64,000 nucleotides of DNA from Acanthaster planci (lineage: Eukaryota): the NCBI RefSeq assembly GCF_001949145.1, contig NW_019091357.1:3930228-3994227 (forward strand), read 5' to 3'. Positions 1-41,465 of this stretch are shown here, one piece after another. Positions within the stretch are counted from its first letter, which is position 1. Every line of letters begins with the position of its first letter. A program made the translations under genes and the position numbers. The notes under the pieces are model-generated. The model was not told where the DNA came from. It made no database searches and saw nothing but the letters and a program-made list of their open reading frames with translations.

Positions 1-2280
1 AAGAAAAAATATATCCACTATTTTCATCCTGAAATTCGAAAATCTTCCTCTCACAGTAGGTTGAAGAACAAACTCAAAAAACTCTTTCTACCGTAAGGCA
101 CGACGGACGAATGACTCCGTAGCAATCCCTTGACATGCAGGTCTGTGCTTTCAGATATTGACGGAAAACAAACGAAGCAAGCCAACACCTCAACACCTAA
201 ACTAAACTGAGAAGTCCATAGGACGGTAACACAATTCAAGTCTTGAAAAGTGAATAAAGAGACAAAAGCGATAAAATATATAAAAGAAAAAATGCATGAG
301 AATGCTCTCGCCCACAGAGTAGTTAAAAAAGACAGTGTCTCAACAGGCGGTCATCTTGCTTTCCACAAGTCCACATATGTCGAAACTTCACTTCAGGAAG
401 CAGTCATCCTGAGCTCACTAATTCGACTGCCTATGCGGTTGAGTCGACTTAATTTCCACTGCAATTTTATGTCGATAAATGGCGTTACAATATATGTCGG
501 CAACTGGATAAGCGGCACTCGCACTATAGTACCTGTATGCTCTCCCAAAGGACGTCATATCTGTACGCACACAAAATTGAAGAATGTTTGATCTTTAGAT
601 CTTTTGTAGCATTTTTGGACTGGTCAAGTTTTTCGGGAATCGATACTGCAGCAACAAATTTTTGGAAATTGATTTTGCATGTCTAGTCCTCTGATCCTTG
701 TACGTTATATTATGGAACACCAACCATTCGACCATTGCATTTTACACATCCATTGTTCAATAACTCTTCAGCCAGCTGAGGGCAGACATCGAAGCTCGCC
801 CCAGTTTGCCACTTTCTTCCAGATAATTGAGTCTGGTTGTGCTGGTCGGTTAAGGTCCTACAACCAGCACTTAAGTTCCGTGTAGACAGCAACTGGACAA
901 TCACATTAGATGTTACATGTCTTGAAAGAGCGAGCCCCACTTACCCGGTTGTCGCTCTCTGACCTACAAAATCTTCATTAAAATACGCGAAAGTGGGCAA
1001 AATAAGTGAGTAGAATACAATTTGGCCTAAATAGGCGAAATACTCCGAGATTACAGTACGGTCATATTTTTTATCCAAACCTATCTGTGTCCTGGCGTAA
1101 ATCAGCACTGTCACAAAGCAGCTTATTTATTATTTTATTATTACCTAAAATACACATGAAGATTACGACATGCCTGCATTTAATGCATCAATTTTCATTG
1201 TGTACTGAAAAATTGATGAAAATGATAGCAGTTAACAGTTTGAGGTTCGACAACAACGTCGGATGTTTGCTGGGTCGTGAGTGTGATGCCAACACAGTAG
1301 TGACGTCTCGTCCGGCTAGCCTAAGACCACTCTCATTTTGTCTACAACTTGTGTGGGCGGCCAAAGTTTGCAGAAATATCGACTTTCGGCTGGTTTTCGA
1401 TTTTACCTCCAATTTGATCAAAACGGACATTTGTCCCATTATTTTAAATAGAGTTGTATTTTCATTTAGTATTTGGTAGTACGTGGTTTATATATCTGGT
1501 GTTCTGATAGCTGCGTGGAATTTATTTTCTTATTAATTAATTTCAATTTTTAATTATTCTTTAAATTTGGTACCAACGGCCAACCATAGTTTTACCAGCC
1601 ACTTGTAGAAAAAAACAAGACTGTGACGTCAAAAGACCTGACCCTATAAGGGTTACAATCAAGACAATTATTACTGGGCAGAAATACTACAGTCGCCTGC
1701 GGACAGACCATGGAACAAGAAACGGGGCAGCCGCACCCGTACCCCAGGCTGGTTCAATCAAAGTCCGGCTGAATTGGTTGCACAGTTCCTGGGCGGCCTT
1801 CGTTCCTTCCCCTGCCCTTTCAGGGAACAAGGACTGCCTGATTTCGTTGCCGACCTGTATCCATGACTATGATTTCCTTGAACCTTCATTGGATAGGGCA
1901 CAACCACTCGCGCTGGATAAAAGTTTACGAGTTAGGCAACAAGCAACCCACAATGTCTTCTACGGTCTGTACTTCCCATGCGCAAAATGTTATGGAGGAG
2001 CTCTGCCCATCCAACGCCTGTGCCAGAGAAAGGTCTGCTTGGCTGTTGGCAACCAGTCGTCCAGACAGTTCTGCACGAGCCTGTACCACCACAGAGAAAA
2101 AATATCTCTTTGGTAAGTACCACTTAGTAAGGACAGGACCATTGTCAAGCCCTGCAGCAAACTCTTGATCGTCAACGGTTGCAATATAGTATTATCTTGG
2201 TCATCTGTCCCTAATGCAGACATTTCCAATCCGGTCTTGTGCCAAAAGCACTAACCTGCGACTCTTTTAAGAAAACCAAC

Positions 2281-2673
2281 CTTAATTGATACTGGTCAAC
2301 CGCAGCCGGAAGACCAGGGACAGGGAACCTCGCCACGCGACAAGCCCCGCAACAAGAAACGAGAGCCCGGTCAGTGAGAACATAGAGCTACAACCCATGG
2401 GTTGTAGCTCTATGGTGAGAACATGCAGCCGTGAATGTAGGCCTTGGCTGGGGTGCCGAGGAACGTGATGGAGGAGATGAAGCTCGCCAGCAGGGAGAAG
2501 GCGACTGGGACCAGATTCATGCGCCGGTCGGCCAGCAAGAACTCGGAGGCGGTTCGCTGTTTACCGCCGGCCAGAGCGTGGTACACACCGATGCTGGCAG
2601 AGACGAGCAAGGTGCAGGCCAGGATGGCGTAGTCTGCCCACCCGAAGAGCCACTGTTCTAACTCGACCGCCAT
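2281..2673 (-). pseudogene. Pseudo-exon: disrupted copy (A) of the first coding exon of an SLC5 sodium-coupled monocarboxylate/multivitamin-type transporter
   Basis: ATG at 2673 gives MAVELEQWLFGWADYAILACTLLVSASIGVYHALAGGKQRTASEFLLADRRMNLVPVAFSLLASFISSITFLGTPAKAYIHGCMFS. A 41-bp insertion (34-bp palindrome plus 7-bp duplication) then introduces a TAG. Removing it restores LTGLSFLVAGLVAWRGSLSLVFRLRLTSIN, colinear with the other copies. That frame ends in TAA (2284-2282) where the others have Glu, followed by G|GTTGGT (GT at 2280-2279). Confidence 0.88.
2374..2421. mobile_element. DNA-transposon (P-element-like) excision footprint: GTGAGAA + 34-bp perfect palindrome + GTGAGAA
   Basis: 2381-2414 CATAGAGCTACAACCCA|TGGGTTGTAGCTCTATG is a perfect 17+17 inverted repeat. 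It is flanked by the direct repeat GTGAGAA at 2374-2380 and 2415-2421, and is absent from the three paralogous exons. Confidence 0.8.
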
Positions 2674-3836
2674 AAATCATCCTCATTGATACACAAAAGA
2701 ACATATCCTCCTCAAAGCTCGAATAATGTGTCCGAGCAAGTTAAAACATAGGTCAAACTGACTTGTCTGCAGCCGATTCCGACTATCCAAAACGACACAA
2801 TCGGTTTTCAACTTTTCTTCGTATTCGGCTCTGCGGAAATCGATTATACAGTTGTCCTCCGTCGGTCAATATTTCTTTTGTGAGTCATGAACAGCCACTC
2901 TTAATTTGCTTCTCTAACACTGTTGCAGGGCATCCAACCTGAGACATGCACCACGGTATTTCAACGTGGTTTATTCAAAGTAGGCCTAATAAAACTGACT
3001 ATAAGGACTGTCTGCGCACAGACATGACAAAATGCGCCGTTTATCGCATCCGTAGCCCATTAACCGGCTGCGCGTTTTCTCGTCAATTTACAGTATAAGT
3101 TCTCTAGGTCAGGTGTTGATTTTGAAATGAATAGAACATTTCACAACTTTTTATATCAGATTTAGTACCTGTCTTGTAGAAAATATCCAACAGCAGAAAG
3201 GACCACACGTCTGCCAGAAATACAAACAAATAATCATAGAGGAAGGAAGTAAAACCAGGGAAAGGTCGGGTTTGAAGAACGGATTTAAGATATAGCAATG
3301 AACTTGGAGTTGGATTGCTCAGCCAAGTTGAACGAAGCACAAAACAGGGTGCTGGATATTGGGGTACACTGGAGAAAATTAAACATGTGAAAGGCAACGA
3401 CAACAGGGGCAAAGCAACAGGTGAATTTACCACTCTACACATTATTTAGTATTAATATAAAATATAAGGAAGGTAGATTTGCTCCAGTGCTATCCACACT
3501 TTACCATGGAAACGATATCATTGGTTATGGATACTACTTCCATGCAGGGCACCGGCATGAGATAGGGAGAAATGGACCGGATTTCAAGGCAGTTTCTGAC
3601 GATGGAATAACTATAGTTTTCAATTTCAAGGCAGATTTGACATTAAAGACCTACGCTGAAAGTATTGACCTCGCAAATGCACAGCATTCAGCATAAAGTC
3701 AGCACGTGCAGTAAGTTGTTCGTCAAACGGATGTCCTTCGTGCCTTGAGCGTTGATCTAAGAACTAAGCCGTGAAATACAATAGCATTAATGAGATGTCA
3801 GATGAATGAGATGTCAGTTGATCATTAACTGCCTAC

Positions 3837-4187
3837 CTCAAAGGCGCTGGTGACGTGCAACTGAAAGAATACAGGCATAAAACATCGCCAGGTGATGAGG
3901 CCCGTCAACACGTACGCGATCCCGTACAACCAAAACATGCAGCCGTGGATGTAGTTTTCGGCAGGGGTGCCGAGAAATGTGATGGCCGAGATGAAGCTGG
4001 CCACCAGGGAGACGGCAACAGGGACGGGATTCATGCTCCGGTCGGCCAGGAAGAACTCGGCGCTGGTACGCTGTCTTCCTCCGGAGAGGGCGTGGTAGAC
4101 GCCGATGCCGCACGAGATCAGCAAGGTGGTGGCGAAGACGGCATAGTCGGCGCCGCTAAAAACTCTGGCCACCACTCCAATTGTCAT
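3837..4187 (-). CDS. SLC5A8-like: SLC5 sodium:solute symporter (SLC5A8/SLC5A12/SLC5A5-like), first coding exon, copy B (117 codons)
   Basis: MTIGVVARVFSGADYAVFATTLLISCGIGVYHALSGGRQRTSAEFFLADRSMNPVPVAVSLVASFISAITFLGTPAENYIHGCMFWLYGIAYVLTGLITWRCFMPVFFQLHVTSAFE. Carries the SSF N-terminal motifs (DY..F, EFL.A.R.M, SL.ASF.SA, G.P.E.Y). Ends GAG|GTAGGC (phase-0 donor at 3836-3835). Confidence 0.92.
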
Positions 4188-6400
4188 TGCTAATGCGGTG
4201 GGTAGACCGATGTATAGAGCGTGTAACAGCTGTTTGGAGTGTTCGACGGAATGCTGCCGAGCACTGCTATAAAACACGATGCCACTAGCAGCTTATGATT
4301 ACAAAGAACCGACTGCAGAAATTACTCGTGTGGAAATTGTTGGCAAGTGAGATGCCGGTTTTAGCCAGCGTGTTCACTGTACGTGTATACGCGAACAAGC
4401 CCTTGTTTATATTGACAGCCCCCATGCTATTGTTGAATGATCAAGGAAAATGATTATGCATGACCATTTGTGGTTAGCTTTCCTTTCTTTGATGGTTAGG
4501 CTATGTGGTATCCATGAACTATACAACGACTTTATCCATGCAGACGTGAACACGTCAACTCCTACGTTACCGGATGTCAACCACCTTATCATATGAGAGT
4601 TATACTGTATACCGGTGTTTGTTTCTTTGTATCTGTTCCCTTAAAGCTGTCTGAAGTCACCGAACGATTTGGGGAGGAAAAGCCAAGTCTTGAAATTTCC
4701 CCTTTAACTAAGGTCTTCTTGCTTTGCTTGCCGAACCAAAATGCGCCCGGGATGCGTGGATCCACTATATACCACAAGGACGTGACAACGCTTCCGTTCG
4801 CTGGAACATTCCACGAAATATGCTGGCCTAGCCTTGGTGGTATCAACAATTTTCTTATCCGGCTACCACAGCAAACACTGTGGGTGATGTATTCATTTAC
4901 AAGTTCAAGTTCTCGACTTAGTCGTCCAGGAAATTATCAATCGGAGCGCTCAGAGGACAAGAGTCTTCTCTATTCAGTTCATACTTGGCGCGAAGGTGTG
5001 ACGTCGCCTGTGCGATCAAATTTCGCCTAGGGTGTTGTTTACAGTTCGAGAGAACTCAAGAGCGATGCACTGTCAGGGTCAAGAGAAACGTCACAATTGG
5101 AATTGGACAATCGGGGTCCCTGTCCCAGTTTTCTGGACTGTTTCCAAGTACTTGGCCGAATACGATGAATTCAGGGTGGAGGTTCTTTATGACGTCAAAT
5201 TCCCTTTCCTAAAAATCTTCATTCTTCAAATTTAAAGCTGTTATGTTGCTTTCCTGGTCACAATCATAACCAGGCCAGTAATGCCCCCCCCCAAAAAAAC
5301 GGTCTGTTCGATTTGTAGCGAGACGGGTAGGCGTGATAGGCCTGGTGAACGCGGATGCACCAGCAGCTTGGGGTTGACAGTGCGTCGAGTCGTTGACCGC
5401 TCGGTTTCTCCTACGCTCTCAATGTTAGAAAATAAGGTTGAATTGTCATTTTTTCTTATCGTTTCCCTTTACTGAAGGCAAAAACCAGCGAGAGAACTTA
5501 ATCTCGGGAAGATAAACGAGGAATTAATGTTAATATTAATAACTACAGACCTGTGTGATCAACAGGTATTTTGTGGGTATATGAAATACAGTGTATTCTT
5601 TCGATTTTGTGTTAACTGCTAAGTAAGTGAATTACTGGTATTCCATCACCTCATCCAAATTTCCAATGCCTTGAATTCTTCAGCAGATCCAAACACAAGA
5701 CAGAGAACTTGTGGGATAAATATACAAATACAATCTGAAGGCAAACAAGTTCATTCCTTTCAGCACCCAAGACAAAATGATTCAACATTATATTCGAAGC
5801 GAATGTTTCCATGACACAGCTGTAGGCCTACTGGTATACGACATTGGGGGACGGGAAGTCCCCCAAACTGACTGAACTCTAGACCAAAACAACCTTTGGA
5901 GCAAATCGTTTGTACGTGAATTTTAAAAACCTGAATTCTCTTAAAAAATAAGACTGAGCAAATGTTAAATGGAAATTTAATAAATAAAATCATTTCACAA
6001 TGCAATCACCGAGCGCATGCATGTACTGATAAAATATACTAATGAAGGTCGTGACGTCACTACCTGGTACAACCTTACTGAAAGTGTGAATGCCTTTACG
6101 GCAAGTTCATCCGCGTGCTTTATTAGGATTTAAGCCCAAAGATACAGGTTCACATGTTCCGCGCCATGCATATGTTGATCAAAAATCCTGTCCTTTCACG
6201 AGTTTTCAATACACGTGGTGAGTAGTACCACTTACAAGGTCACACAGATGACAAGTGTTGGGAGGTTAATTAAACTTATGATTGGAAAGTACAGTCGCCG
6301 CCTTGGTTTTGCCACACCTTCTAAATGCAAAGACATGCACAAAAAAGACAACCTTACACATGGAAATGTCGGCGGTGTTGTGTGTTTTATTCCTCCATGC

Positions 6401-6640
6401 TTGCATGTGGTTAAGCGTTTTGTTGGTTTCGGCTGTAGTTATGATTGTGGCTTTGCTTGGCTAGGGTTTGGAGTGTGGCTGTAGTTTTGGTAGCGGGTTT
6501 GGTTGTTAAGCTTGAGTGTTACTTGCGTGTGGTTTAGCGTTTTGTTGGTTTCGGCTGTACTTACGATTGTGGCTTTGTTGGTTTTGGCTAGGATTTCGAG
6601 TGTGGCTATGGTTATAGCGGGTTTGGTTGATAAGTTTGAA
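6401..6640. repeat. Diverged tandem duplication, two units of about 120 bp (GT-rich)
   Basis: TTGCATGTGGTTAAGCGTTTTGTTGGTTTCGGCTGTAGTTATGATTGTGGCTTTG... at 6401 recurs as TTGCGTGTGGTTTAGCGTTTTGTTGGTTTCGGCTGTACTTACGATTGTGGCTTTG... at 6523. Confidence 0.85.
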
Positions 6641-8528
6641 TTAAAGTCGGGACACTGAGATAAGAGATAATCAGGTGGAGTTTTCAAATTGTTTAGGTGT
6701 ATGAGTGCACTACCAGCAAGAGCCGTATCATTAACCACGTTATCGCATGACCAACATCGGGAAGCCTCAGAGGCAACAAAACTATGATCCTACATTGCCT
6801 AGGCGCGAGGTTGGTGTAGGGTATCGTGTGATTTCACTATATCAAAGACCTGTCGATCCCTTGAATCACTCTTGACCTTACAGGGTCGCGTAGCTGGCAA
6901 CCTTACACTACAGTGCCACGTATAGTCCTATATACTACATGTACAGTACTACTAATGGGTAGTTACCACAGCGGCCCGTACGACCCCCAGACGTCGGTAT
7001 TAATGGTAGTCATATTAGACTTGGTTCAAGCACAGTAGACAAGAGCTAATTCCTTACCCCATTATTACATGTACCTTTGCTAATAATATGGATTCCTTGG
7101 AGAACTCCACCTGAAATTTCCCTTTGAGAAGATGACATCCTGTATATTGATGCTAATTGGTACCAAAAGTTAAATGAAAGAAAGTCGTCATTGACCGTGT
7201 AAAAGACAGAGGAGAGGTTCAGGGGTATGCCAATCAGATATTCGAGTGTGCATTCATACAGCTGCTGATATGATTTAATAACTGAATGACGGCACTGAGG
7301 CGCACTACAATGTCTTGCCCGAAATCAAAATTGGGCATCAGGTGAAATTATTGCGATTGCTGAGGAGTTATGCGTTGAAGCAACCAGTGCCAGCAAGGAT
7401 CGTTTTCGCTTTCACTCGAAAGCAAGGTGCCACGATATCACCCCGATCTGCAAACCTGGTCGTATTCGTAAACTTCGACGCCACTGATATTTTGACGCAC
7501 TAGTTTACTCCTAGCCAAACATTCAATATCAACAATGTTTTTGTCGCCTTCTGCTGGGAGTGAACAGCTCAAAGTTCATCCTTTGCGGAACAGTGCATTA
7601 TTATTTAGCAAACAATACTCCTGGGTTGAACTATCCCGTGACCTACGACTTCTCACTATTGGCACAATTCCAGTTCAGAATGATTTGAAGGTCTCGATTC
7701 TGGCGCAACATATTGCGCATTGTAGGAACAGTCGTGTGCGTTGGCGGAATGTGCAACAAGCTAGACGGCGCGACTGATCAGTATTACGACCTACGCGTTA
7801 TTGCTTCCTCCGTTTTTATTGGATGCACGAGGAGTATCAACGACAACTGAAGTTTCGTATTTAACAAACTGAAACCTATTATTGTTTAGTAAGGAAGTAA
7901 CTATTTATCATTATTAATGCGGTGGACGCGTAAGTCGCTTCGACAGTCGGTTTGTAGGAGCAACAAGGGACACAACGCCTCCTAGAAAATATTGGATATA
8001 TGAAAACAAAACAAAAAATGCAGAAAAAGAAAGGAAGGAAACCAAAAAGAACAAAGGCGATATAAAACTCAAAATTCCTAAATTTCTCTAAATTCCTCTA
8101 AATTTTGAGTTTAGTCTTCGAACTAACTCCGTCCATTATTTAATTAGTGATTAACCCCTGCCAAGGAAGCAACACGCTGGGGAAACCCGACTTGGATAAA
8201 GTCTATATAATCGTAGTTCTGGGGGATTGGTTTTTCAAAGGAAAGTATTAAGTCCAACATTTCAACAGAGGAAGTTCACAAGGCGTCAAGACAACCCTCC
8301 TCCCCAGAGCCATTTTCCCATAGAAAAGTACATCATACGACACTTGTGTAAGACCCCCCCCCTGCACCTTCCCAGGACGCCATGGAAACCCTGTTTTTGA
8401 GGCTGATCGGATTGTTCTTTGATTGACATATTTTGACAGCTGATGGCATCGAACGGATTGCTTCCTTTGTTGGTCTCTTGTTCGATTGTCTCTGGGATTT
8501 CTATAGTTCATCTTTCAGAAGTCCTTAC

Positions 8529-8882
8529 CTCGAAAGCGCTGGTGACATTCAGCCGGAAGAAAAGGGGAATGAAGGCCCTGGAGACGATGATACCGGTGAT
8601 GGAGTAGGCAAACCCATACAGCCAAAACATGCAGCCATAGATATAGTTCTCGGCTGGGGTGCCGAGGAACGTGATGGCTGAGATGAAGCTCGCCACCAGG
8701 GAGACGGCGACAGGGAAGGGGTTCATGTTGCGATTGGCCATCAGGAACTCCTTGCTGGTCTTCTGTCTGCCGCCAGTCAGGGCATGGTAGACGCCGATCC
8801 CGCACGAGACGAGCAGAACGCAGGCAAAGACGGCGTAGTCTGCGCCGCTGAAGACCCGCAGCTCTAGTTTGGCGGCAACCAT
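8529..8882 (-). CDS. SLC5A8-like: SLC5 sodium:solute symporter, first coding exon, copy C (118 codons)
   Basis: MVAAKLELRVFSGADYAVFACVLLVSCGIGVYHALTGGRQKTSKEFLMANRNMNPFPVAVSLVASFISAITFLGTPAENYIYGCMFWLYGFAYSITGIIVSRAFIPLFFRLNVTSAFE. Start context ATCATCATGG; ends GAG|GTAAGG (donor at 8528-8527). Confidence 0.93.
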
Positions 8883-9017
8883 GATGATTTCTGTGCAGTA
8901 TTTGATCCAAAATCGAAGACCTAAGACCACTGCTCCGTGCTACGCGGCAGTCTGCTAGACAATGGCCTTGACCAGAAGAAAAGCGACTTGTCAGGTTGGC
9001 AACAGTGGTTTGTTACT

Positions 9018-9022
9018 ATTGG
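9018..9022 (-). promoter_or_regulatory. Possible CCAAT box about 135 bp upstream of the ATG of SLC5 exon copy C
   Basis: Minus strand reads CGGCCAATAG. Short motif, could be chance. Confidence 0.25.
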
Positions 9023-12000
9023 CCGACGCGCTGCGAAAGAGATCTGGCACTACCAACGCATCGGTGGTAAACATGTACACGTACATGTACATTTTTCAAC
9101 GCCAATGTCATGGTTGGTGTCCTAAAGTTGGTGCTAGTTACTCACGCCCTCTGTTGGTGACAGCGTAACTTGAGAGCAGTACACGGTAACGATTCCAAGC
9201 CCGTGTTCCCGCGTAGCGTGGCCAATTTTCTTAAGTGCGAGGGGTGAGGGATGACAAGAGTTCCCAAGGAGGGGGGGGGGTTGTTCCTCTTGCCTACCCC
9301 GATACATCACAGAGTTTGTATAACGGACGGTTCTTTCAAGAACCTTATTATACCTATAGCCACACTAAAGTAACATATAATCAACCCAGGCTATAGATGA
9401 TGTGACGACAGCTGCCCTCTCCCTCGCCACCAACAGAATCCAAATTTTCCAGTGAGAGATGGGTAAGAGTTCCCACAAGAAAGACAATCACTCCACCCCC
9501 TTCACCTGCCCCGGCTACGTCCTTGCCATGTTCCCACTCGTTTCTTATGGGGCAACGCGGAAATCTGGGATTCTCGCAAAATTGGCAGGTACCGAGCCGG
9601 GGAAAACAACGACCATAGCAACGTACGCACGCACCAGCCACTCCGAGGATTGGGTTACACAATTTTTTGTTTGATCAGTACGTACACACGCGCTCGTTGC
9701 AGTTGTTTTCATCGGCGAGGTGTGGTTGCTACGCGCAATTTTGTGAAACTTTCGGAAGTCTGCCCCGCCCCATACTCTTTAAATATCATTACACATACAG
9801 AATGTAGGCCTAACTCTCATGTCTTGCACATTATTATAATAGCCACAATTAAGGACTGATTTAACTTAATTTCTATAAAAGTAGAAATATAAGGAAACAA
9901 ATTTCGCATGGAGAAATCTTAAATCGGGGAATGTGTACAATAGGTTAATTTCCTACATCCACTTTTCTTGTTCTGTAAATACTTAATTAAGTAGTGTCCA
10001 GCATGTGCCTGTTTTTTGCTCTGAAAATGTAGGGACAATTCACTATCCGAATTGACCAGAAGCACCCTGTCACACCCACGGAAAGTACTCCAGCCCGTAA
10101 CGCGTAACCGTTGGCAGTTCAGGTATTTTCATAGAGAATAATCTGCTTCACGGCCCCATGACTACTCAACCATATTGTCTTATACACTTGTGTTCATGCG
10201 CCATTGAGACAGCGTTCATTACAAGTACGCATGCGCACTTCATTTTCAAGCAGACAACAACGGTTTTTCGCGCAAGTAGACGACGTTACAGCGCGGAATT
10301 TTTCAACGACTGACCTCGTAAAATACCAAAGTATGGAAGCATAAATAAATTTTGGGAGGATCTAAACACGACACCACAAACAACACACAATTTTACTCAA
10401 TTAGTGAGATTTTTAAATGACGGTAAATCTCAGAACAGTAGAGAAGTGGATTTTACAGACCCTATATTAAAAAAAATCGAATTTGCAAAATTTGGCACTA
10501 GTTTCATCAATTGATGTTTAATAGAAAATAAATTTTCTGAGACAGAAATCTAGCACCAAATTAAAGATGCACCCTTAATGCATTGATTTCAGACACTTAT
10601 TTTGAATCCGCCGGATAAATTGTTGTACTAATCAGGTCATTTTGAATAATCCCCAAATCGTATCGATGCAACGGTGTACGAAAATTCAAAGCCATTTTAT
10701 GTCCATTTTTATTACCAAAATGGTATATCCAACACGAGGATGATGAATTTCTGTGAGATTTTACTGATTTCGTTAGTACCTATACATTTTCACAAGGTTG
10801 AATCGTTAAATTAGTAACATATCCTGTTCGTCACTTCCGCTGCTGTGGCCACTGACCACTGTGGTACCAAGAGTTCAAGTCGTCACGTCTGCCTGAGCAC
10901 ATGTGCATGAACATGTACATGTCACGCGTACACATGTAACCACGCATATAAGACTGCACTTTTTAGATGAGATATATGACGTATATTTCCGTTACAAAAT
11001 GTCTGGATTCACACGATTTGGCGCGAAAATTTGGTACAAATTCAAACTCATTTTACAAATACTCTTATCCAGCGGATTCCCAATCGATTGAGACAGTCTG
11101 CAAGTTTATATGAATCTAGTTTTTATAACCAGGAAAACTCATTTTAATAGATATTGGTCAAATTTGGCAACACTCAATTATTTCAGGTGAGAAATCAAAT
11201 AACTTTTGGGTTATTTTGCATTTTTCATTACGTTTTTTGAGACAGGACAAAATTAATGCTACAGAAAAATGAAACAATAATTGTAATTTGGATTTGTCAT
11301 GAAAATTTTATTATTTATGCTCCGTTTCCTGGAAATGCATTAACAAAGAAGACGCCTCATTTTGTAGCCAGAGCGTGCGAAATCAGACATAGCCTGTTGC
11401 TATGCCGTTGTTTAGTGCAAATCTTGCGCACGCGCATTTGGGTGATGAACGCCGTGAACATACGTGTACAACCAAAGTAACATTACAAGAATAGCATTTA
11501 CTCGACCGATGTTCTAACTAACCAATCGTGAAAACGTATTTCTTCCCACCAACTATCTGATAAACATGAAAATGCAGCACAGGCATTCGCAGGCGCTCTG
11601 GCCATATACAGACATCATTCTATTTATCACACACTGTGACCCAAAATACTATGGGGTATACTGAAGTTGACTACAAGGCATACAATCATGGTTGTTCACT
11701 ACTTTAAATAACAGCAATGAGTTTCTCTAACAAAACAATTTTACTTCCTGACACACCTCTTCATCGGTTGACAAGAGCTTTGTTGGTCAGGAGTGCTCAT
11801 TATGCTGGGAGCGACGCGCCCGTAACACGTGCATTTCATTGTCGTTTGTGAACCAGCGAAATGCACGCAGTTCCGACCAAAGGAGCCGCGTTTGCTAGGA
11901 AAATTGCGTCCTCTCTTGGACCAGCTCGGGGTACTTATACTATGCATCCGAAATATTTGTCCCTAAAACGAGACTCTTCCCAGATCGCGGGCCAATCCTC

Positions 12001-14715
12001 ACTGATTTCAGCTCGTCTCATCGGCTACTTGGTCACCTTGGAGAAGGCAAACCACCATGCAACGAGTCCACTGTGAGACGACAAGCAGTCGGCCTCTGTC
12101 TCCATTTGAAAGACTTAACATTTCCAGCAACTTGAAGTCAGTTCCGTAGAACTATTTTAAACCACGACTGTATGGAAAAGGGGCCTAGAAAATAACCCCT
12201 TTATCCCCGCAGCTCATGTCTTCCAACATGAGGGTATCTCACCAAACCCCAAATGGCCATTAGCCATTCCTGCCTCAAGTTGCTTGCGGCTCTAAGCAAG
12301 TCATAATGGGCAACCTGAAAGTTTTCGCAGTCCAGCCAGCGGTCAAATGCAGAATGGGGGCGCCCTTCCGTGCAAAAGTCAGGAACCGACACCTCAACAA
12401 AACACACTCGACTGCACGAAAACAGTAGAATACTTTGATGAAAAAAAAGTATCAAAATCTCGCAAAAGGAAAACTGGTCTACTCCGTCGAAGGAACTTCC
12501 TCCCCGGACAATATCGAAAACCACCTATGAAGGTTGTTTGCTTAAACAATAACCTACTACGATGTAAGCAGGCAATATGCGATATGCAATTCATGTTATC
12601 CGTGGGAGAGAGCTTTTCATCAAACGGAGAAACCATTAACGGACCACATTGTATGTACACTACCTTGAGAGGTGACATTAACTTACATAAGTTCATTGCC
12701 CCATTCTGTTCACCCTCGCGTGCAGACATAAATTTCATCATCCTGCCACTAGAGCACTGTGGATTTCGTTCAAGGTAGGATCTGCGAACTGACGGTTTTC
12801 GTGTGAGCTCCAGACAGTTTCTCACTCCGGACTCTATCCGTGGGTTAATTGAGTTGGCCAGCTTGGTATGTTACAGGGTGGGTCATTCGAGAATAAAGCA
12901 CGAGTGCCAGTCGGCGCATGACCGCCCTGATAGGGCAGACCTCGCGCGCGCCCACTGCTGTTGCCCCAATGACCTCGGACGCGCTCCATCGCGCCGCAAG
13001 TACTGTTGAAATACAATTGGCTTAATATTAGGGCTCACTTGAAACATGACGCGATGAAAGCAATGGGCAAAACTTTGCTGAAATACGATACATTCCTGTC
13101 TTATGTGGTTGTTTCACAACTCACAGTTTTAACGTAGCAGTTAAAATGGTTAAAAGATGTGCTCGATGAAAGAGCGTTTCTGGCCAGCTAAACCTGCAGT
13201 TTGTACTGGGTCACGAGAAATACGTTCACGGTGTCCTTTTGTATGCATTCAGATATTTGCACTAAATGACGTGCATGTTTTCAGATGAATGGTAAAAAAA
13301 ACTAATTTAGTCGATATTAAGAACTATAGCAATATGGCGGATCATTGCTCGACAGCATTTTCCATTTTCAAAAAGTGATCCGTGTCCTCTCAGAAACGAG
13401 GGCTGTACTTCGAAGAAACGAGAGAAAATACATTGCAAAGACATGCAGAAGATACAGCTTATCCAAGAAATGGGGGAGGAATAACTTAAGAAATACTGAA
13501 GACATTACGCTTATCCCGAGAACAAAGGAAACGAACAGCACAATCCCATGATTTCTGCTGCTTCTTTGGACTACTTAAGCTTTACAAGCCCAGTCAACAT
13601 GAAAGAACTGGAAACTGCACTGTCAACGTAAATCACCACTGCCACTCTGGCATCAGTGCAGACATTCATTTCTAGCCGACCCTTGAATGTCCCTGAACTT
13701 TGTGTGCATTAATTGTTAAGCTGCGTGGTCCCACAGAAACTTGTACTGCGCCCAGTTTGCGTGAGAGGCTATACCAAATCACATCTGCATGCCTTTGCAC
13801 TTTTCACACTCCTATAGCTGCACATTTCACCGCCGTGTGAGGCAAACACAAGGTTTATTACTTTTGCGGAAATGTTGGATTGAAAACCACTGCTTCACAT
13901 TCACACGCCGCGGAAGCTTTGTTGACAGGATACGAGACCACTGAATCAATACGCCCATGACAGATCGTTGTTCCAAAGTTATACTGCGATGGATCTGTTC
14001 GAGTGCGGCGGCATTCAGATCTGCATAATTTTTTTTTTACCAAAAGCTGTTGGGAAACGCGCCACTTTATTTATTTGAGGTTGTATATGTCAACTTAAGT
14101 CTTAACCAATACTAACTCTTTAAATTCAAATGTGTTACTCTTTTAGCAGGTTCATGAAAACTGATTACTTACGCGCGTATCCATCCATTGCGATTCCACA
14201 CTCAAATATGAGGTTTTAGCAGAATCGAACGAAAGCTAGGAGTTCCATCAGTTCGCCAAAGGTTTATTTCGTTGCCTAACTTCAAATCAAGGAAGGAAGT
14301 TAAAGTATCTATATTTAGGCCTATAAGCCTATCTTTGTCGATAAATATTGGATCTTCAAGCTAATATATACATTACTGGGGTGGAAGGGCACATGAAACT
14401 CTATAGCCTATCCATGTCGAAGAGATACGTGCTTTATGCGTTTAGTTTACGCCTAGCTAGTTGTGACTTATCACACTGCACAAACAGGGGTTTCAAACTT
14501 AGCACCCCGATTGTTATTAAAAAACCATGCAAACACCTTTCGCAATATTGGAATTTTGGTGTTATGTCAACACCGTTGGTGTTAAGTTTAACACGTTTAC
14601 ATCTGTAGGTGTGAAAAGTACCACCAGCAGTCTTTAAATAACACATTTTGATATGGTCAACTGATAACCCCCAATGGTTTTGCTAAGAGGTCCGTGGGGT
14701 CTTCAGAAAGCTTAC

Positions 14716-15060
14716 CTCAAAAGCACTGGTGACGCGCAGACGATAGAAAACAGGAATGAAGCAACGAGACGTCCAGAGCCCGGTGAAGACGTAGCTCGCG
14801 CCGTAGAGCCAGTACATACAGCCCTGGGTGTAATTCTCGGCCGGCGTGCCAAGGAAGGTGATAGCCGAGATGAAGCTGGCCACCAGCGACACGGCTACGG
14901 GGAAGGGGTTCATATTGCGGTCGGCCATAAGGAACTCAGCCGTGGTCCGCTGCTTGCCGCCGGTACAGGCGTGAAAGACGCCGATGCCGCAAGCAACGGC
15001 AAGGGTGCTGGCGCAGACCAGGTAATCCGCTGTCTGGAAGGTGGTGTCCACTTTCGCCAT
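14716..15060 (-). CDS. SLC5A8-like: SLC5 sodium:solute symporter, first coding exon, copy D (115 codons)
   Basis: MAKVDTTFQTADYLVCASTLAVACGIGVFHACTGGKQRTTAEFLMADRNMNPFPVAVSLVASFISAITFLGTPAENYTQGCMYWLYGASYVFTGLWTSRCFIPVFYRLRVTSAFE. Start context GCAGCATGG; ends GAG|GTAAGC (donor at 14715-14714). The ORF-track start at 15108 is a TTG, not an ATG. Confidence 0.93.
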
Positions 15061-17203
15061 GCTGCTTCTCGCTGTTGCTGGGGACAGTGGTCTCCAAATC
15101 TTCACCAAGAAGCAAACAAGGACGTAGTTTCTAAACGAATGAAAGACACGTAATGTTACACAACCGAAGCAACCTTCCTATACATATGCGAAATATTGAA
15201 CCAGTGAAGGTTCTAGCTCCATGGATCAAGTGCTTAGTGTGAAAAATGTCCCCAATATGATGTATTCAGCTTTATATCGTTGGCACCCTCAGGGGCCTGT
15301 TTTGATCTGTCAACTTATCCAATGCGGTTTAGACACTTAACTGACACAGAGGAAGGGAGCGCAAGAGACCCTTGTTCAAAAATTATTCAGTTCAAAACAG
15401 AGGTAGACAAGATCATTAAGCAAGTTACCATTCAATTGTAACCAAAGCCCTTGGCTGTTTAACTTTCAGTTAAACTCGACTTCACATTCAAATGATCAAT
15501 TCTCAGAGGATTACGTAGGCCCAACGAAAAATCTTCAAGGGCCCAGGCAATGTGATTCATCAATGCATTCTTCTTCTAGTCTGTACCTTTTTGACTTTGC
15601 CTTAGTTGTCGTTTTGCTATTTTGCTATATATGAAAAACCCAATGCCATTCTGGGCGGAAATCCAAGACTGTTATTTTCCAGCAATATACATATTATTAC
15701 GGATTTTGTCTTTCGTGATTCACTGTGGTATAAGCATAAGGTTTCATAGGCCTACATTTCAGATGAGTAAATAAAGAGTCGCAAAAAATCGACAGGCTGG
15801 AAAATTGGTCGCTTAACCATCTCAATTTCAAAGACCGTCCCCAGCGCAGTTGGCCTACGATTGGGAATTTCAAAGAGATACGAAAGAAAACAATGGGCAG
15901 GCAACTTAATGTGAGGTCATTCGAGGGTTACATAATTATGCTTCTACCTCGCATAACTCGAAATGGGCTTAGGATATTCGACGTAAGATGTGTTTGCCCA
16001 CTGTTTTTAGGTCAAGTCAGTTGATAGGGGATCCATAAAAACTTTAGGTAGCTTGCCGTTTTAGACAAGAAAGTGTAGCAGCAGTGTAGCGGGAAACAGA
16101 GCGCGACCATGCTAGACCTATCAGGACTGTGAAGGCGGCACGCTTTTGCAACGTGAGAGTCACCATAGTTGGAAACAAACTGGTAGTGGTATGCAAAAGC
16201 TGCACGCTGTACAGCCCACATAATGAACAGCCATTTTGTTTCCACACACGATTTTCCAGCTTCTGGGCCACATGGTGATCTTAACTATACCAAAAGTTTC
16301 TGTCCGAGGAGGGAGGGAGCTCCAGAAAAAAAAATTCCTGCAAGGCCGCCCGAGTGGAGACGATTCCACTTGTTGGCCAGAATAGCCTTGATACGTGACA
16401 TGCTTTCTCAACACGCAAGCCATTGTCATTTGTATATATGTACATGTACACTTCCGTACTAGTAATGCAAATGCAATAATCATTTCCAAGAAAGAATTTC
16501 AACAGAAACATGAAATTCACATCAAGGCAGATCGCCGATTACCGTGGTTGCAACAGTTCAACCGATTCGTGCATGAATTATTGAACAAATGGTCTGGGAG
16601 CAGCGATGTCTGTTTATCTGCTAGTCTTAATGGACGGGTCCCCGTCCCTATTATGTAGGTACCGGTAGCTAGCTGCGGTTAACGCGTGGGCGATAAGCCC
16701 TGTCTATCTGAATGCTGAATATTTCAGCTTTTGTCAGGCCAAAAGCAATGTCTTAACATGACATACGTTTCAGCAGGGAGTCGAATAAAACACAAGTACC
16801 TATCCTTGCTAAGCCTCTGTTGATCAAATTGTGGTAATTTATTTTCAATGATTATATCATCGATACTATCAGCTCCTGCTTGATTTGGGCATTGAGCGGG
16901 TATCGATTCCTCCTTTGCATAAACTCAGCAGCGTTCTGCCAGATTCATTACCCGCCACCGGCCCCTACGTTCGGAGGACGTCTGTAAGACGTACGGAACT
17001 GGGACCGGTATGCTAGTCAGTAGGCAGGCACAAAATAAATAGGCCTACCACCAGTGGACTATACTTTATCAAACAACTTAGAATACACAGGGCAAACAAT
17101 TCAGCCCCTGTCAACAAAACTGGTATTGCTAGCTTGTTTTGGGTGCCGTCGCCGTGATTGCTCTGATAACAGATGTCAAATAGCTTGGGCACGAATTGTA
17201 TGC

Positions 17204-17471
17204 CAGGGCGGCTGAGCCGGGGGGGGCAGGGTTGTGCCCTCCCTATATAGCAAATAGCAAAAAGGGCGGTTTATCAAAAATAACGAGAAAACGCCGGTTT
17301 TTTGTACATTTTCTTTCTCTCATACCTTCCAAAAGCAAGAAGCACCGATATGTAGCCTCAACCCTCAGAAAGGCCATAAAAGGTTGCATATAAAAGCATA
17401 AGTTTTTACCCTCAAAAAATGTTGTTTGCCCTCCACGACAAAATGGTTCTAATGGTTCTTGATCGCTTTTG
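17204..17471. mobile_element. Degenerate MITE-like remnant (CAGGGCGGCTGAGCCGGGGGGGGCAGGG... end)
   Basis: Left end has the G-run/GCCC structure typical of short non-autonomous DNA elements. The right end is decayed and no TSD was seen. Confidence 0.3.
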
Positions 17472-19030
17472 TGCCCCGAATCACTGAGTAAAACATCGAC
17501 AATCCTCGCACTTTTTGGTTTGCAGCTCAGTGGGAGACTTTGAGACGCTAGGTGATGGCAAGTTTACCGGTTCTTTCAACAATTCTGAACAAGCGCATAT
17601 TGCTATGAGCGTGCAGGCATTGTGCAGCGCACGCGCAATGCTGTGAAAAAAGACAGGTGTGGCTACTGCCACCAGCGTCTCAAACTTTCCCATTTGTATA
17701 TCATTATCATAGTCAAGGCTTGGGCATATTCATGACCCTATCACTCCGTAACTGTCTCATCCCAATGTAAGTCTCCACTCCCCCGAGAAGACGTGGCTGA
17801 TCTAAATCTTCTGATTGTCATCCAGAAGGAAGAAATCTTGAATTTCCTTTTGACAGATTTCACATGAGGCAAAACTTCTGAACTTCACGAGGATAAGCCC
17901 TCTTGAAAAAAAACCTTTCCATAGTTATATAAGATTTTTGAGAAGGCAGTTTTTTCACTCTCAGCTTTGTACTCTATAGCCACGTTCCTATTTCCTCAAT
18001 GCCACCACAAATTGACATTGATATGATTGATTTACAGTTTTAAGTTAGCAAATGGGTTATTATAGTCATAGGCAAGGATGGATACACAGGTGTTTGAATT
18101 ACGCTGAGTGCTCTTCAACTGTGATTTCTTCCTTTCTTCTATATTTTTGTTGATTCCCACTGGCTTGCTTTTCAGTTTTCCTTATGTTTGAAAAGATAAT
18201 GCCAACTCCTAGGCTAAGCTGACAAATATTGGGCCGGTTACTGGTACCCTCTACCTGGTCACAGGAGGGAAGAGCGGGAAGCCTTTATCTTTATCGAGTA
18301 TTTGGTTTATTCCGCGTACACCGCCGAGGAAGTCCCCGAAACCGATCGCAATGGCGCAGAACATTCCGCTGTTGATAAACTTTAAGCCTTCATGCTTAGT
18401 AACTGTATACTTTTGCCGTAAGAGTAAATAAAATGGCACAGTTCAAAGTGGGTAAATATTGAAAGATGGCAACTGTGGGACACGTTTTAGAAGGGGTGTG
18501 TGTAAGAAAACAAGCCCCGGATAATTTCTTAAAAACCAGTCAAGTAGACAGCAATGGTCGACATCACCTTGGTGAGCATTGCCATCAGTTCTACGAGTTT
18601 AAGATCCAATATCTTTCTTATTTTGATATGTTTTAGCAAGGGTAGCCCTTAATAACCGTTTCGAGGGGGAAATGGTGTATTGAACATACCAGTGGTTGAG
18701 TTTATCGCAATAAAGACGTGTGTCACTTCGCCGCCGGCACGGTGGACAATATCAACCCGCACGTACGCACGCCACGTTTCAATAATATAAAAGCTCCGAA
18801 TTGGACTTAGTTTGAGCTGGGGCAGGGGTCGTGAGAAGGGTTAGGGACAGCACAAACATACTAAAGACCACGCGTCGCTCTCAAAAGATTTGTCGGGGGC
18901 TCGAAGCAGAATTTACCGCTGGAATGTGATGTATAGACTATGGCTAATAAGGCGTATACTGTGACTGTATTTGTCAGAATTCAAAATAAAAAACCTCTTG
19001 GAGTAGAAGGCTCCAGCCCTTCCCCCCTTC

Positions 19031-19069
19031 CTCCAACCATAGAGGTGGGTTGTAGCTCTATGCTCCAAC
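19031..19069. mobile_element. Second P-element-like footprint of the same family
   Basis: CTCCAAC + CATAGAG G TGGGTTGTAGCTCTATG + CTCCAAC. The TSD is 7 bp, the right arm is identical to the 17-nt arm at 2398-2414, and the left arm is truncated to 7 nt. Confidence 0.8.
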
Positions 19070-19568: not shown

Positions 19569-21004
19569 GTACACGAGATCATCGGGTAACAATATCGATA
19601 CCAATAACTACTTTCTGTATGGTAAAATTGAAAGATGACAATCAACCATGATTCAACTTCCAACCTAAGTTCAACCTTCTCTATGATTTAACTGAACGAT
19701 GATCACAAGGACTATGACTGAGCTTTCATAATATAATCATCTGACTATGCCTACAGTACATCACCTCACTTTCAAAATCAAGGCATTAAAATCTAACTGA
19801 CGGAGAACCTGTTTAACAACCCGCGGCATTCCGAGTTAAGTTTGCATCCTTCGTTAACGGCAGAAACTAAACTTTGGTCTCGTACAACTCATGTATTTAT
19901 ACAAGTGCAGATAATGTCGTGAATGTAGATGTCACATCAACTGATCAATGACATCATATACATGCATGCACACTGCTTTCTCCGGACCAATCGTGGAATT
20001 CGTCCACTGGCTGCCACTTGACAGCGTACGGACCCACTGAGCGGTCTTTAGGCAATGTCGCCGCAGGTTGAAGTCAACACTGTTCATCCCTATTTTTAGT
20101 CAAATTAATTTAAACATGATTAAATTGTGCGAAAAGTACTGCACTGAACTTACTTTGAGAAAACTTGGAGACTACGAACACGCGGAGCCAGCTATGAGAA
20201 ACACCAGCAATGCAAGTACATTTACAAGTTCTTTGCATCCAGATTCGCCTGCAGCAACAGCATAGAGGGCTACTTGGCACGCACACTTACAGTACATATG
20301 CATGTACATGTACAGTATATGTGAACATCAGTGACTCCACGCGAACTACTGAGTGGTTTGTGGCCCTCCAACTATATATGCACAATGTGCATTTACAGCT
20401 GCTTGTTCAACCTTGAACCCGAATGGGAGCATGGGAGTACTGGACCCAAAAGGTCGTGGAAGCTTTCGGCTTGTTACCGAAGGGTGCGCGCTGCGCAGAA
20501 TTCGCTCCCCCACATGACCTTCAAGACCTCTAGAACCGTTCACCAAATAATTCTTTCATTCTTTACGTGAGCACCTCTTCAACCAAGGCCGTGTCATCTT
20601 TGCCTTGTAGAATATCCAGTTTCATCCTGTAAGGTCACAAGTTCAACAAGTTCTTTTTCTTAGGTTCTATGTAGGACGTGTTTTTGTTTTCCGTTGTTTT
20701 CCACTGCCTTGCCAGGATAGTTTTTTTTTTTCGTACACGTGTATTTAAAAGACACTCATTTCAGTCTACTTATTTTTTTCTATTTATATCTTTATTAATT
20801 GGAATGAGTTTATTAATGATATGCTGTATTTTATGTTATGTTTCGTTAATATTGTTTTTACTTTCTAGAACTCCCGTATCCACGAGTAAAACATCGATTT
20901 GTTCATAGGCAAAGCCTTTAGTGATATAGTTGCTATGCCATGGGACTATGTACACACTGACAGAACGTCGAGTTTTTATAATATTTGAGCGGGTTTTTTG
21001 TTTT

Positions 21005-24809: not shown

Positions 24810-25110
24810 CTTAATCGATTGTTTCGAAAAGTTGATGAAGTAAACCTTGGCAAATGTTGCAGGAGCTACCGCTGCAGCGAATCCAAGTGACTGTCTGAAC
24901 AGGAAAAGTAGCACTACAGCCACTGTGGTACTGCTGAGCGTGCCACCACGAAAACCGTATTCATAGGCGGTATAACCGGCGTCAGCACGTACCTTGCAGA
25001 CAGAGCCTGCCGGAGTAGTTGAATAGCCCCCTCTCTCGGTTAGTTTGAGAGATGCCGTACGGCTCGATGGACCAGACGTCCGCCCCTGTATCTTCCGCAG
25101 GCGTACCACA
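24810..25110 (-). other. Candidate non-coding (5' UTR) exon on the minus strand
   Basis: CpG-rich segment ending in a consensus donor AAG|GTAAGT (GT at 24809-24808), just downstream (minus sense) of a CCAAT/ETS cluster. The 5' boundary is a guess. Confidence 0.35.
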
Positions 25111-25419: not shown

Positions 25420-25910
25420 GGCGGGCCAATGCTTGTGATTGGACGGAAGTGGCCTACAATGTTATACTCTTTGACTCGACTTGAGATACTTTTTCGGCGC
25501 CAGGGGGATTAGGCTGTTGACTTGGCTTGGGGTAGCAGTATGGCTACGTTTGTGTCTCAATTTTATCCTGGAATAAAAATCGGGATAATCCAACAGAAGT
25601 GTGAGACTCCAGTAGTATTCCCGTCGTCGTCCATCTCTCTCTGGCCGTTTTCCTTCCTTTTTTCCTGCCTTGATTGGGCCTCCGATTCCTCTTTCAGTGG
25701 CGAACGGACCGTCATCACCGAGCGATCGGCTGGGGGCCAGACCGCTACATTAACTTTCTTTAATCCTAGACGGATATTGAGAATACGGGCATTTCACAAT
25801 AGTGCGCCTCCAAGAGTTCGAAACGTGTTGGCCAATCACACTACGTGGAATCTGTCGACCCAGTGCGCGTTTAGAAAGGGTCGACAGATTTCGTGCGTTG
25901 TAATTGGCCC
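25420..25910. promoter_or_regulatory. Promoter-like region with several CCAAT boxes and an ETS-type site
   Basis: CCAAT 25426-25430, ATTGG 25438-25442, CGGAAGT 25444-25450, ATTGG 25673-25677, CCAAT 25832-25836, ATTGG 25903-25907; locally CpG-rich. Confidence 0.4.
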
Positions 25911-34598: not shown

Positions 34599-35474
34599 AT
34601 GGAACCTCAGTCGTCAAATAATGGTGCGAATGGAGGAACACATATGCCGCAATCGGTCATGGGACCAGGGGCTGGCAGTGTCATTCGACCTCGCCCACCC
34701 GTGCCCAAACCAACCCCACCACCGCCAGCACCAGCTGGAAGCATTAGCAACGCGGCCGCGGCATCTCAAGCCGCGGCCCGCCGCAAGCTGACCCGGCCAC
34801 CCCGCCTGGAGAGCGTCTCGGAGAGCGAGCACAGCGACCGGTCCTGCGTGGACTCACCGGCCAGCTCCGACTCCTTTGGCGTCAAGTCCTACCTGCACAA
34901 GTTCTACGAGGAGGACCCAGCCTACAAGGACCGCGACGACATCTACTGCGAGGACGAGGAGCACCCACTGGCCGACCTGGCAGCTCGCAAGCGGCGACGG
35001 GGCCCCTGCGGCTGCTGCTCCCCGGTCTGGTGGAAGGCTGGGGCCTGGGTGGGCCTTAACATCCTGATCTTGGCCATCCTGGCGCTGATGGTAGGCTATT
35101 TCATCACCCCGCGGAAGGAAGTCCTCGGCTACAACGAGGACGTAGCAGTGGTGGACGAGGACGCGCGGAAGTTCAACCGGCGACTGGACTCGGCCAAGCT
35201 GGCGGGGCTGATCATGATGTGTGCCGGCGGGCTGGTCATTGCCGTCTCCCTCCTCATCCCGAGTTTCTGCTTCGCCAGCGACGAGGACAGCTACAGAGAC
35301 GAGATCAGGGTGGATGCCGAGAACACCTTCCCGCCGTACATGCCGATTGCGTCGCAGCACGAGACCGCCGAGGACGGTATACCGTACACGTCGGCGCTGA
35401 CCAACGTCCAGCCAGAGAGGGCAAAGGGAGAGGCAGTAATAGCAGGCAAAGGAGTTGTGAGCGTCCAGCAGTGA
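34599..35474 (+). CDS. NRSN1: Neurensin-family two-TM vesicular membrane protein (NRSN1/VMP-like), 291 aa
   Basis: Contains FGVKSYLHKFYEE, matching the neurensin hallmark (YGVRSYLHQFYE in vertebrates). Two hydrophobic helices (AWVGLNILILAILALMVGYFI and LAGLIMMCAGGLVIAVSLLIPSFCF) are separated by the 'VVDEDARKFNRRLD' loop. Strong GC3 bias and ATCATGG start context. Confidence 0.9.
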   Translation: MEPQSSNNGANGGTHMPQSVMGPGAGSVIRPRPPVPKPTPPPPAPAGSISNAAAASQAAARRKLTRPPRLESVSESEHSDRSCVDSPASSDSFGVKSYLHKFYEEDPAYKDRDDIYCEDEEHPLADLAARKRRRGPCGCCSPVWWKAGAWVGLNILILAILALMVGYFITPRKEVLGYNEDVAVVDEDARKFNRRLDSAKLAGLIMMCAGGLVIAVSLLIPSFCFASDEDSYRDEIRVDAENTFPPYMPIASQHETAEDGIPYTSALTNVQPERAKGEAVIAGKGVVSVQQ

Positions 35475-41057: not shown

Positions 41058-41465
41058 TCCGTTGGTTGGTATATTATCATTTGCACCCTGGGTGGGGGAT
41101 TTTCAGAACTTTTACATGTTCAAAATGATAATTTTGAACATGTAAACATGGTTATTACCATCTGACAGGTAGAATTCGAATACACTTTTTCCCAATCCCA
41201 TTATCTGTAGATGTTTGATACAATGTCCATTGACATTTTACTCTTTTACTGGCGATACATTATCGGTTATAGATTTTGCTTAATTACGTTCTTTGTCGAC
41301 AGATACATTATCGATTAGAAATTCCCCTATACTATATGGGTCAATTTGTGAAACATTATCGGTTGGTGATACATTGTCGTTCAATTTATGCTTCACCAGT
41401 TAGTGATATAACTTGTCCGTTGGTTGGTATATTATCATTTGCACCCTGGGTGGGGGATTTTCAGA
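41058..41465. repeat. Exact 50-bp direct repeat, 358 bp apart, enclosing short GATACATTATCG repeats
   Basis: TCCGTTGGTTGGTATATTATCATTTGCACCCTGGGTGGGGGATTTTCAGA at 41058-41107 and 41416-41465. Confidence 0.9.

Follow-up and report, generated by a model that had tools for sequence, protein, structure and literature searches.

A stretch of 64,000 nucleotides from the sea star Acanthaster planci (assembly GCF_001949145.1, contig NW_019091357.1, positions 3,930,228 to 3,994,227 of the forward strand), called the window here and numbered from its first letter throughout, carries a tandem array of homologous first coding exons of a transporter gene of the SLC5 family. Four homologous segments are present, named c1 to c4 from left to right. 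We consider it probable that they form the variable 5' region of one SLC5A8/SMCT-like gene, in which c3 and c4 are spliced to the same exon 2, c2 is likely to serve as a third choice, seldom taken, and c1 is dead, and in which the choice of exon likely sets the site of expression and, via a predicted Phe/Tyr outer gate, the handling of the cargo. That variable first coding exons are joined to a common body is close to certain, and differential use of promoters is highly probable. As to a real difference between isoforms in affinity, cargo range or coupling, the chances appear even. The array is made up as follows (TM, transmembrane helix; 5'-UTR, 5' untranslated region).

14716..15060, minus strand: c4, variable first coding exon, 115 residues with TM0-TM2, Tyr at the gate position and Ser at the position of NIS G93, donor GTAAGC, extended in the 5' direction to an acceptor at 15130.
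15061..15130, minus strand: 5'-UTR part of the c4 exon, acceptor ...TTTAG before it, loose read ends at 15130/15132 in RNA run X15.
20154..20183, minus strand: 3' end of non-coding exon A, 6 reads of run X15, unique match at 20154, donor GTAAGT, 5' limit unmapped.
24810..24841, minus strand: 3' end of non-coding exon B, 8 reads of run X15, unique match at 24812, donor GTAAGT, 5' limit unmapped.
8529..8882, minus strand: c3, variable first coding exon, 118 residues, donor GTAAGG, Phe at the gate position and Ala at the position of NIS G93.
3837..4187, minus strand: c2, variable first coding exon, 117 residues, donor GTAGGC, Phe/Ala type, thin RNA coverage.
2281..2673, minus strand: c1, pseudo-exon with 85 homologous codons, a 41-bp insertion and, at the donor position, a terminal TAA with a one-base offset.
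2381..2414, no strand assigned: palindromic mini-element within c1, with CATAGAG ends and a 7-bp target-site duplication.

A re-check of the sequence bore out the placement of the four segments in a preliminary description of this DNA, all on the minus strand and each starting at an ATG, as well as the endings that it gave for the intact copies. Indeed, c2, c3 and c4 are open frames that end in TSAFE and run into a phase-0 GT donor, and their proteins are 69-79% identical (E 1e-52 to 1e-58 within the window). An exon-1 profile run on the 64-kb window detected c1-c4 as the only copies. The same description had seen no second-exon or body sequence between the copies or in 1-2280, and scans of the window agree: with 61 homologues as tblastn queries, the best E outside the four copy zones was only 0.058, and a profile of the constant part (103 sequences) gave no match better than E 5 in the six frames. 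The segments are thus tandem homologous first coding exons, with a common strand and a common frame at the donor, and constant exons are missing between them, as in a variable-first-exon cluster.

The gene is already annotated in RefSeq as “sodium-coupled monocarboxylate transporter 1-like” of Acanthaster planci. c2 is the exact N-terminus of isoform X2 (XP_022090973.1), c3 that of isoforms X1 (XP_022090965.1) and X4 (XP_022090999.1), and c4 that of isoform X3 (XP_022090982.1) and likewise of XP_022090991.1. In X1, X2 and X3 the remainder is identical over 527 residues and starts with YLELRF. Isoforms X1-X4 hence already encode three variable N-termini on a single body; they are unreviewed, and silent on the array, the pseudo-exon, the recurrence described below and the pocket difference. 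The product belongs among the SLC5 sodium:solute symporters, with PF00474 at 144.6 bits against a cut-off of 22.8 and a LeuT-type SLC5 fold. In sequence searches c3 matches the structures of SMCT1, SMVT and NIS, SMCT1 being the closest solved structure, and a Foldseek search with the predicted model ranked NIS and SMCT1 first (E 1e-32, target-normalised TM-score, i.e., template modelling score, 0.94-0.95). By its likeness to SMCT1, the cargo is likely to be short-chain monocarboxylates. From the single RefSeq gene model and the absence of the body from the window, we infer that the constant exons lie in cis, left of base 1.

Four raw RNA runs, chosen by species label (X12, X15, X16, and X19; 18-24% of each run used), were aligned to 1-19000. 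The libraries appear unstranded, so that the strand was taken from splice signals, and 23 of 37 loose read ends are listed. Loose ends occur at 8529, the donor edge of c3 (24 reads in X12, 6 in X15, 16 in X19), and at 14716, that of c4 (7 reads in X15, 8 in X19). Both are the same 30 bases, whose reverse complement encodes YLELRFNKVL, the start of the shared body. Among the loose ends listed, junction reads to the shared exon 2 are therefore present for c3 in three of the four runs and for c4 in two. The 30 bases have no occurrence in the window, in line with the earlier proposal that the shared exons lie outside it. More than one copy is thus spliced, c3 and c4 both being joined to exon 2. 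The preliminary description had expected one gene with at least three isoforms, swappable in their N-terminal three helices, and junctions from 3837, 8529 and 14716 to one acceptor; this held for 8529 and 14716, whereas 3837 gave no junction read and the c2 isoform is known from the RefSeq model. Zero c2 junctions were found in two alignments, of which the second was aimed at c2 or c1 junctions and found neither; the region 2100-4500 took 10 reads in X19 and 4 in X20, none of them spliced. No splicing from copy to copy was seen among the joints listed, the sole joint within the stretch being likely a repeat artefact.

Part of the array is also found outside the reference assembly. Run X8 yields one 6640-bp contig bearing c2 and c3, with 4116 bases between the matching points vs. 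4112 here, and four runs contain 0.88-0.91 of the words of 3700-9000, which speaks against an artefact of assembly. That the copies are ordinary tandem whole genes, orphan fragments or such an artefact is extremely improbable. In its favour, the constant exons themselves are unseen in DNA, and whole-gene SLC5 paralogues occur on a scaffold of the same length; yet no body exons separate the copies, and the shared junction already refutes this explanation for c3 and c4. Haplotype duplication is excluded because synonymous divergence (dS) is above 1.1. By the Nei-Gojobori method, with dS near saturation, the intact copies show dS of 1.15-1.60 and ratios of non-synonymous to synonymous divergence (dN/dS) of 0.12-0.18 over 108 codons, the comparisons of c2 with c3 and c4 giving 0.12-0.13. 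In residues 60-80 (the TM1 block) there is no amino-acid change despite a proportion of synonymous differences (pS) of 0.42-0.66. The intact copies are under purifying selection.

The remaining copy, c1, is a pseudo-exon under relaxed constraint, with dN/dS of 0.21-0.32 vs. 0.12-0.13 among the intact copies over the same 76 codons. Its 41-bp insertion consists of a 34-bp perfect palindrome and the 7-bp target-site duplication. Since contigs of run X8 both pass through the insertion and skip it (joint “skips 41”, 2373-2415), the insertion is likely polymorphic; at the 3' lesion of c1 the same run shows no gap. A related 25-bp hairpin with its own 7-bp target-site duplication lies at 19038-19062, and the ends of the family read CATAGAG...CTCTATG. 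From their sequences, these tiny hairpins are likely a miniature DNA-transposon family or footprints of one.

Transcription would start from one of several promoters. For c4, the acceptor at 15130 receives the non-coding exons A and B, joined from donors 20154 and 24810 (both GTAAGT). c4 is a first coding exon, as the preliminary description had it, and not the first exon; the non-coding exons upstream of it were no part of that description. No ATG is found in 15061-15130 on the minus strand. Two Patiria models (P0004/P0046) have a 73-residue N-terminal extension that aligns with the frame upstream of c4 (15061-15159, minus strand); because the segment 15061-15130 is devoid of ATG here, the extension probably represents conserved 5'-UTR mistaken for coding sequence. 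c3 and c2 would be transcribed from starts of their own. A separate promoter for c3 is likely, since its reads extend unspliced upstream to at least 9007. The chosen first coding exon is then spliced past the downstream copies to exon 2, as the junctions of c3 and c4 indicate, and the product would be a normal SLC5 fold with TM0, TM1, and TM2 from the chosen exon, TM1 being constant and TM2 variable. Alternatively, a single shared upstream promoter could feed mutually exclusive, Dscam-like splicing into c4, c3 or c2. Upstream non-coding exons do splice into c4, and no start-site pile-up is seen for c3 in a set where 23 of 37 loose ends are listed. The unspliced c3 reads argue the other way, as does the lack of a spliced 5' loose end for c3, the best covered exon, among the 23 listed; we regard a shared promoter as improbable. 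A promoter scan upstream of c3 with a bacterial model, which is not applicable to animals, gave nothing.

Usage of the copies differs between samples. Mid-exon read counts for c3:c4 are 51:10 in X12, 3:26 in X15, 5:0 in X16 and 24:12 in X19. For X12 vs. X15 the Fisher test gives 2e-11, a value overstated because mates are not independent.

What the swap may do to the protein was considered on an AlphaFold model built with a 103-sequence alignment (a single-sequence model, with a predicted local distance difference test score (pLDDT) of 41, was discarded). The model has a pLDDT of 81.6 and places helices 13-36, 55-82 (kinked) and 85-111 within exon 1. Between c2, c3 and c4, one of 26 positions differs in TM1 and 16 of 30 in TM2. 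The TM1 kink anchors the substrate carboxylate in SMVT. Pocket and gate residues of SMVT (PMC13454448) and iodide-site residues of NIS (bioRxiv 10.1101/2022.04.07.487502) were mapped via gap-free HMMER alignments, SMVT Tyr527 staying unmapped. Exon 1 supplies 9 of the 19 mapped SMVT residues and 4 of the 8 NIS residues, and the prediction is that roughly half of the cargo pocket comes from it. At position 86, equivalent to SMVT Tyr99 and NIS Phe87, c2, c3, and c4 have F, F, and Y; at position 92, equivalent to NIS Gly93, they have A, A, and S. SMVT Tyr99 is part of the outer gate and makes a hydrogen bond to biotin (PMC13454448), NIS Phe87 caps the cavity as its ceiling (bioRxiv 10.1101/2022.04.07.487502), and substitutions of NIS G93 change iodide affinity and stoichiometry (PMC6316985). 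c2-c4 have Thr at the position of SMCT1 T70, where NIS has Gln72. On its residues, the pocket is rejected as an NIS-like iodide site: c2-c4 carry Thr/Tyr in place of Gln72/Gln94.

The same array had been proposed as something to look for in related species. Thirty protein clusters were looked up, biased to names with “isoform” and all from deuterostome invertebrates. In 13 of them, isoform models have different homologous first exons and identical bodies; in one subset of clusters, swapped exons appeared as isoforms in none of ten. Among cluster representatives searched with HMMER for a repeat of exon 1, two such stretches were present in 2 of the 150 listed. The arrays, listed below, group as nine loci and represent all five echinoderm classes, hemichordates, and amphioxus.

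Sea stars: Acanthaster, three variants; Asterias rubens, Asterias amurensis, and Patiria, two each.
Brittle star and crinoid: Amphiura, four variants; Antedon, two.
Sea cucumber: Apostichopus, two genes, with two and three variants.
Sea urchin: Lytechinus variegatus, two variants, the pair 62% identical in aligned exon 1.
Hemichordates: Glandiceps, two variants; Ptychodera, two.
Amphioxus: two Branchiostoma genes, two variants each.
Diadema setosum: P0001 (XP_072169927.1), a 1274-residue “uncharacterized protein” with six exon-1 copies before one transporter body.

The Diadema protein is likely a mis-joined model of a six-exon array in a different paralogue. In a quick tree of the constant region (row P0141 was skipped, having no junction match), the window gene falls in an echinoderm-wide clade with support of 98 in the Shimodaira-Hasegawa-like approximate likelihood ratio test (SH-aLRT). 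Within it, sea stars, brittle star, crinoid, and sea cucumber all have arrays; outside it, arrays occur in one more echinoderm clade and in one clade each of hemichordates and amphioxus. The gene shares the fold, the Pfam family PF00474 and the pocket positions of the SLC5A8/SLC5A6/SLC5A5 branch, but stems from an echinoderm-specific expansion and is not a one-to-one orthologue. Exon-1 trees, with 118 columns and many open forks, mostly cluster the variants by lineage, and one of them placed three urchin clade-B copies among clade-A exons. Exons of the c4 type from Acanthaster, Patiria, and Asterias come out together in a single clade (99/96), which makes the c3/c4 split older than that between Acanthaster and Asterias. 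The latter is over 200 million years old. In several of the models (P0038, P0044, P0040, P0004, P0049, and Branchiostoma isoforms) the bodies are alike for some 470-485 residues and then run into alternative C-terminal tails, which could combine with the variable first exons.

Phe and Tyr variants at position 86 are both present in all nine array loci. In all four sea-star species, c4-type exons have Tyr with Ser and c3-type exons Phe with Ala, and of two further exon-1 open reading frames found later (P0355 and P0362) one is of the Tyr/Ser and one of the Phe/Ala form. In a tree of 30 array rows from which the position-86 column had been removed, and the Diadema and A. amurensis copies left out, the pattern needs nine state changes, and a single Tyr clade is rejected (approximately unbiased test, p-AU 4e-59). 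It is conceivable, if somewhat doubtful, that the SLC5A8-like exon 1 acts as a pocket-swap cassette, duplicated mostly independently in at least nine loci of echinoderms, hemichordates and amphioxus, each splitting into Phe-gate and Tyr-gate forms by which a single gene would bring two transport modes, unlike in affinity, cargo range or Na+ coupling, to different tissues. We suggest that arrays may recur because a duplication of exon 1 would copy a promoter and half of the pocket at once.

A different history would be a single ancient duplication behind the Phe/Tyr split, with gene conversion evening out the rest of the exon in each lineage. Several orthologous branches within a single echinoderm clade (support 98) do carry arrays, gene conversion is known in protocadherin arrays (PMC1885805), and a tree of converted exons would group by lineage too. 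Against it, the copies of any one locus are old, with saturated divergence (dS above 1.1, 61-80% identical), arrays lie on at least four separate paralogue branches, and urchin orthologue clusters showed a single exon-1 form; we consider this history unlikely.

Several observations weigh against the main reading of the array. As a third isoform, c2 is known from the RefSeq model only, being absent from the junction reads, and reads of run X19 run unspliced over its donor. The junction reads of X15 give c3:c4 as 6:7, far flatter than the mid-exon ratio. Just one of the nine exon-1 SMVT pocket/gate positions varies among c2-c4, and c2 and c3 match at all ten pocket positions tabulated. For the other species, the isoforms were taken from automated protein models. 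As to position 86, Phe (103) and Tyr (125) are both frequent among the fetched proteins of the family, and in a rough null of 2956 between-gene pairs of matched identity, which are not independent, 41% show F/Y. The chance of nine in nine is then 0.0016, for a column picked after seeing the data; it rises to 0.016 when 10 pocket sites are allowed for, and to 0.11 with 71 columns; column 81 likewise differs in all nine loci. The recurrent Phe/Tyr split, read from sequences, is suggestive and not proven.

In a rival explanation with the same architecture, the copies are retained solely because of the promoters that they bring; the differences in the protein would then be drift that is tolerated, and the isoforms would not differ in transport. 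The invariance of the TM1 kink, the agreement of c2 with c3 in the pocket, the strong shift of the c3:c4 ratio between samples and the conservative, common nature of an F/Y exchange all fit it. It accounts less well for a Phe/Tyr pair in nine of nine loci despite the lineage-wise grouping, for the Tyr/Ser and Phe/Ala forms kept in all four sea-star species, and for the functional relevance of SMVT Tyr99, NIS Phe87, and NIS G93 in known transporters. We give this explanation a serious chance, somewhat below even. In amphioxus and sea cucumber, the variants P0182, P0199, P0200, and P0087 also alter pocket positions of TM1 (Thr is replaced by Val at NIS Q72 and by Ala or Met at NIS V76, and Tyr by Phe at NIS Q94), which makes them better candidates than the sea-star isoforms for large cargo differences.

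The layout is the known UGT1/GCNT2 design and is already implicit in automated annotation. Like the window array, UGT1A, UGT2A, and GCNT2 (PMC1885805) have homologous first coding exons in tandem, equal in length and in frame, on common constant exons, with pseudo-exons, lineage-specific expansion and the substrate-recognition part in the variable exon. In those genes, however, the variable exon is largely a separate N-terminal domain of an enzyme, whereas here it encodes three helices that interlace with the rest of the core in a polytopic transporter; the window array is also smaller (three copies and a dead one), with non-coding exons upstream that lead into one of the copies. Clustered protocadherins and chelicerate sDscam (PMC8373072, PMC4835542) likewise place variable 5' cassettes on a constant 3' part, but they are cell-surface identity codes with many copies, and stochastic choice in single cells is not expected for the window gene. 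A catalogue of human tandem-exon substitutions has 39 N-terminal cases (PMC8373072). Duplicated exons swap part of a transporter, as here, in SLC41A3, SLC25A24, and SLC44A2 (N-terminal) and in SLC12A1, SLC39A14, SLC7A2, SLC25A3, and SLC8A1/3 (internal), with membrane segments in some. In the available part of this source the N-terminal cases span 10-91 residues, no transporter case exchanges three helices together with the TM1 kink and the outer gate, and SLC5 is missing, events 188-198 going from SLC44A5 to SLC7A2. Tropomyosin and ion channels are known cases in which exons were duplicated recurrently (PMC3342872). No description of such an SLC5 array was found in the literature searched (few subscription papers, and bioRxiv without supplements). 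This agrees with the preliminary description, to which the arrangement was not known for SLC5 genes, although the isoforms themselves are already in the automated RefSeq models.

The array takes the UGT1/protocadherin design into a secondary active transporter, and there into the core of the protein. This form of the design appears to have arisen repeatedly in invertebrate deuterostomes. The isoforms amount to natural chimeras, with the same 527 residues in each and differences in TM0-TM2 alone. Such pairs suit the question, raised in PMC13454448, of what sets selectivity in SLC5 transporters of anions, and one candidate residue is at hand. Loci of this kind are misread by expression counts per gene and by ab initio models such as the 1274-residue Diadema protein.

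Elsewhere in the window, on the opposite strand, a neighbouring gene is marked by one long open reading frame at 34599-35471 (plus strand) with a Neurensin/TMEM74 domain (PF14927, E 7.9e-24). Short stretches at 16783-16846, 17358-17389, 1441-1480, and 9071-9092/16435-16455 attract RNA reads that hang loose to either side in several runs; they are likely repeat fragments also present in transcripts from other places, and the joint 16455-9071 is likewise probably repeat-derived. Repeats occur at 6400-6639, 25780-25961, 41058-41465, 45926-46053, 53351-53522, and 55829-55999. Of these, one is a pair in tandem, one is inverted and imperfect, one is direct and exact over 50 bp, and one is dispersed in three copies.

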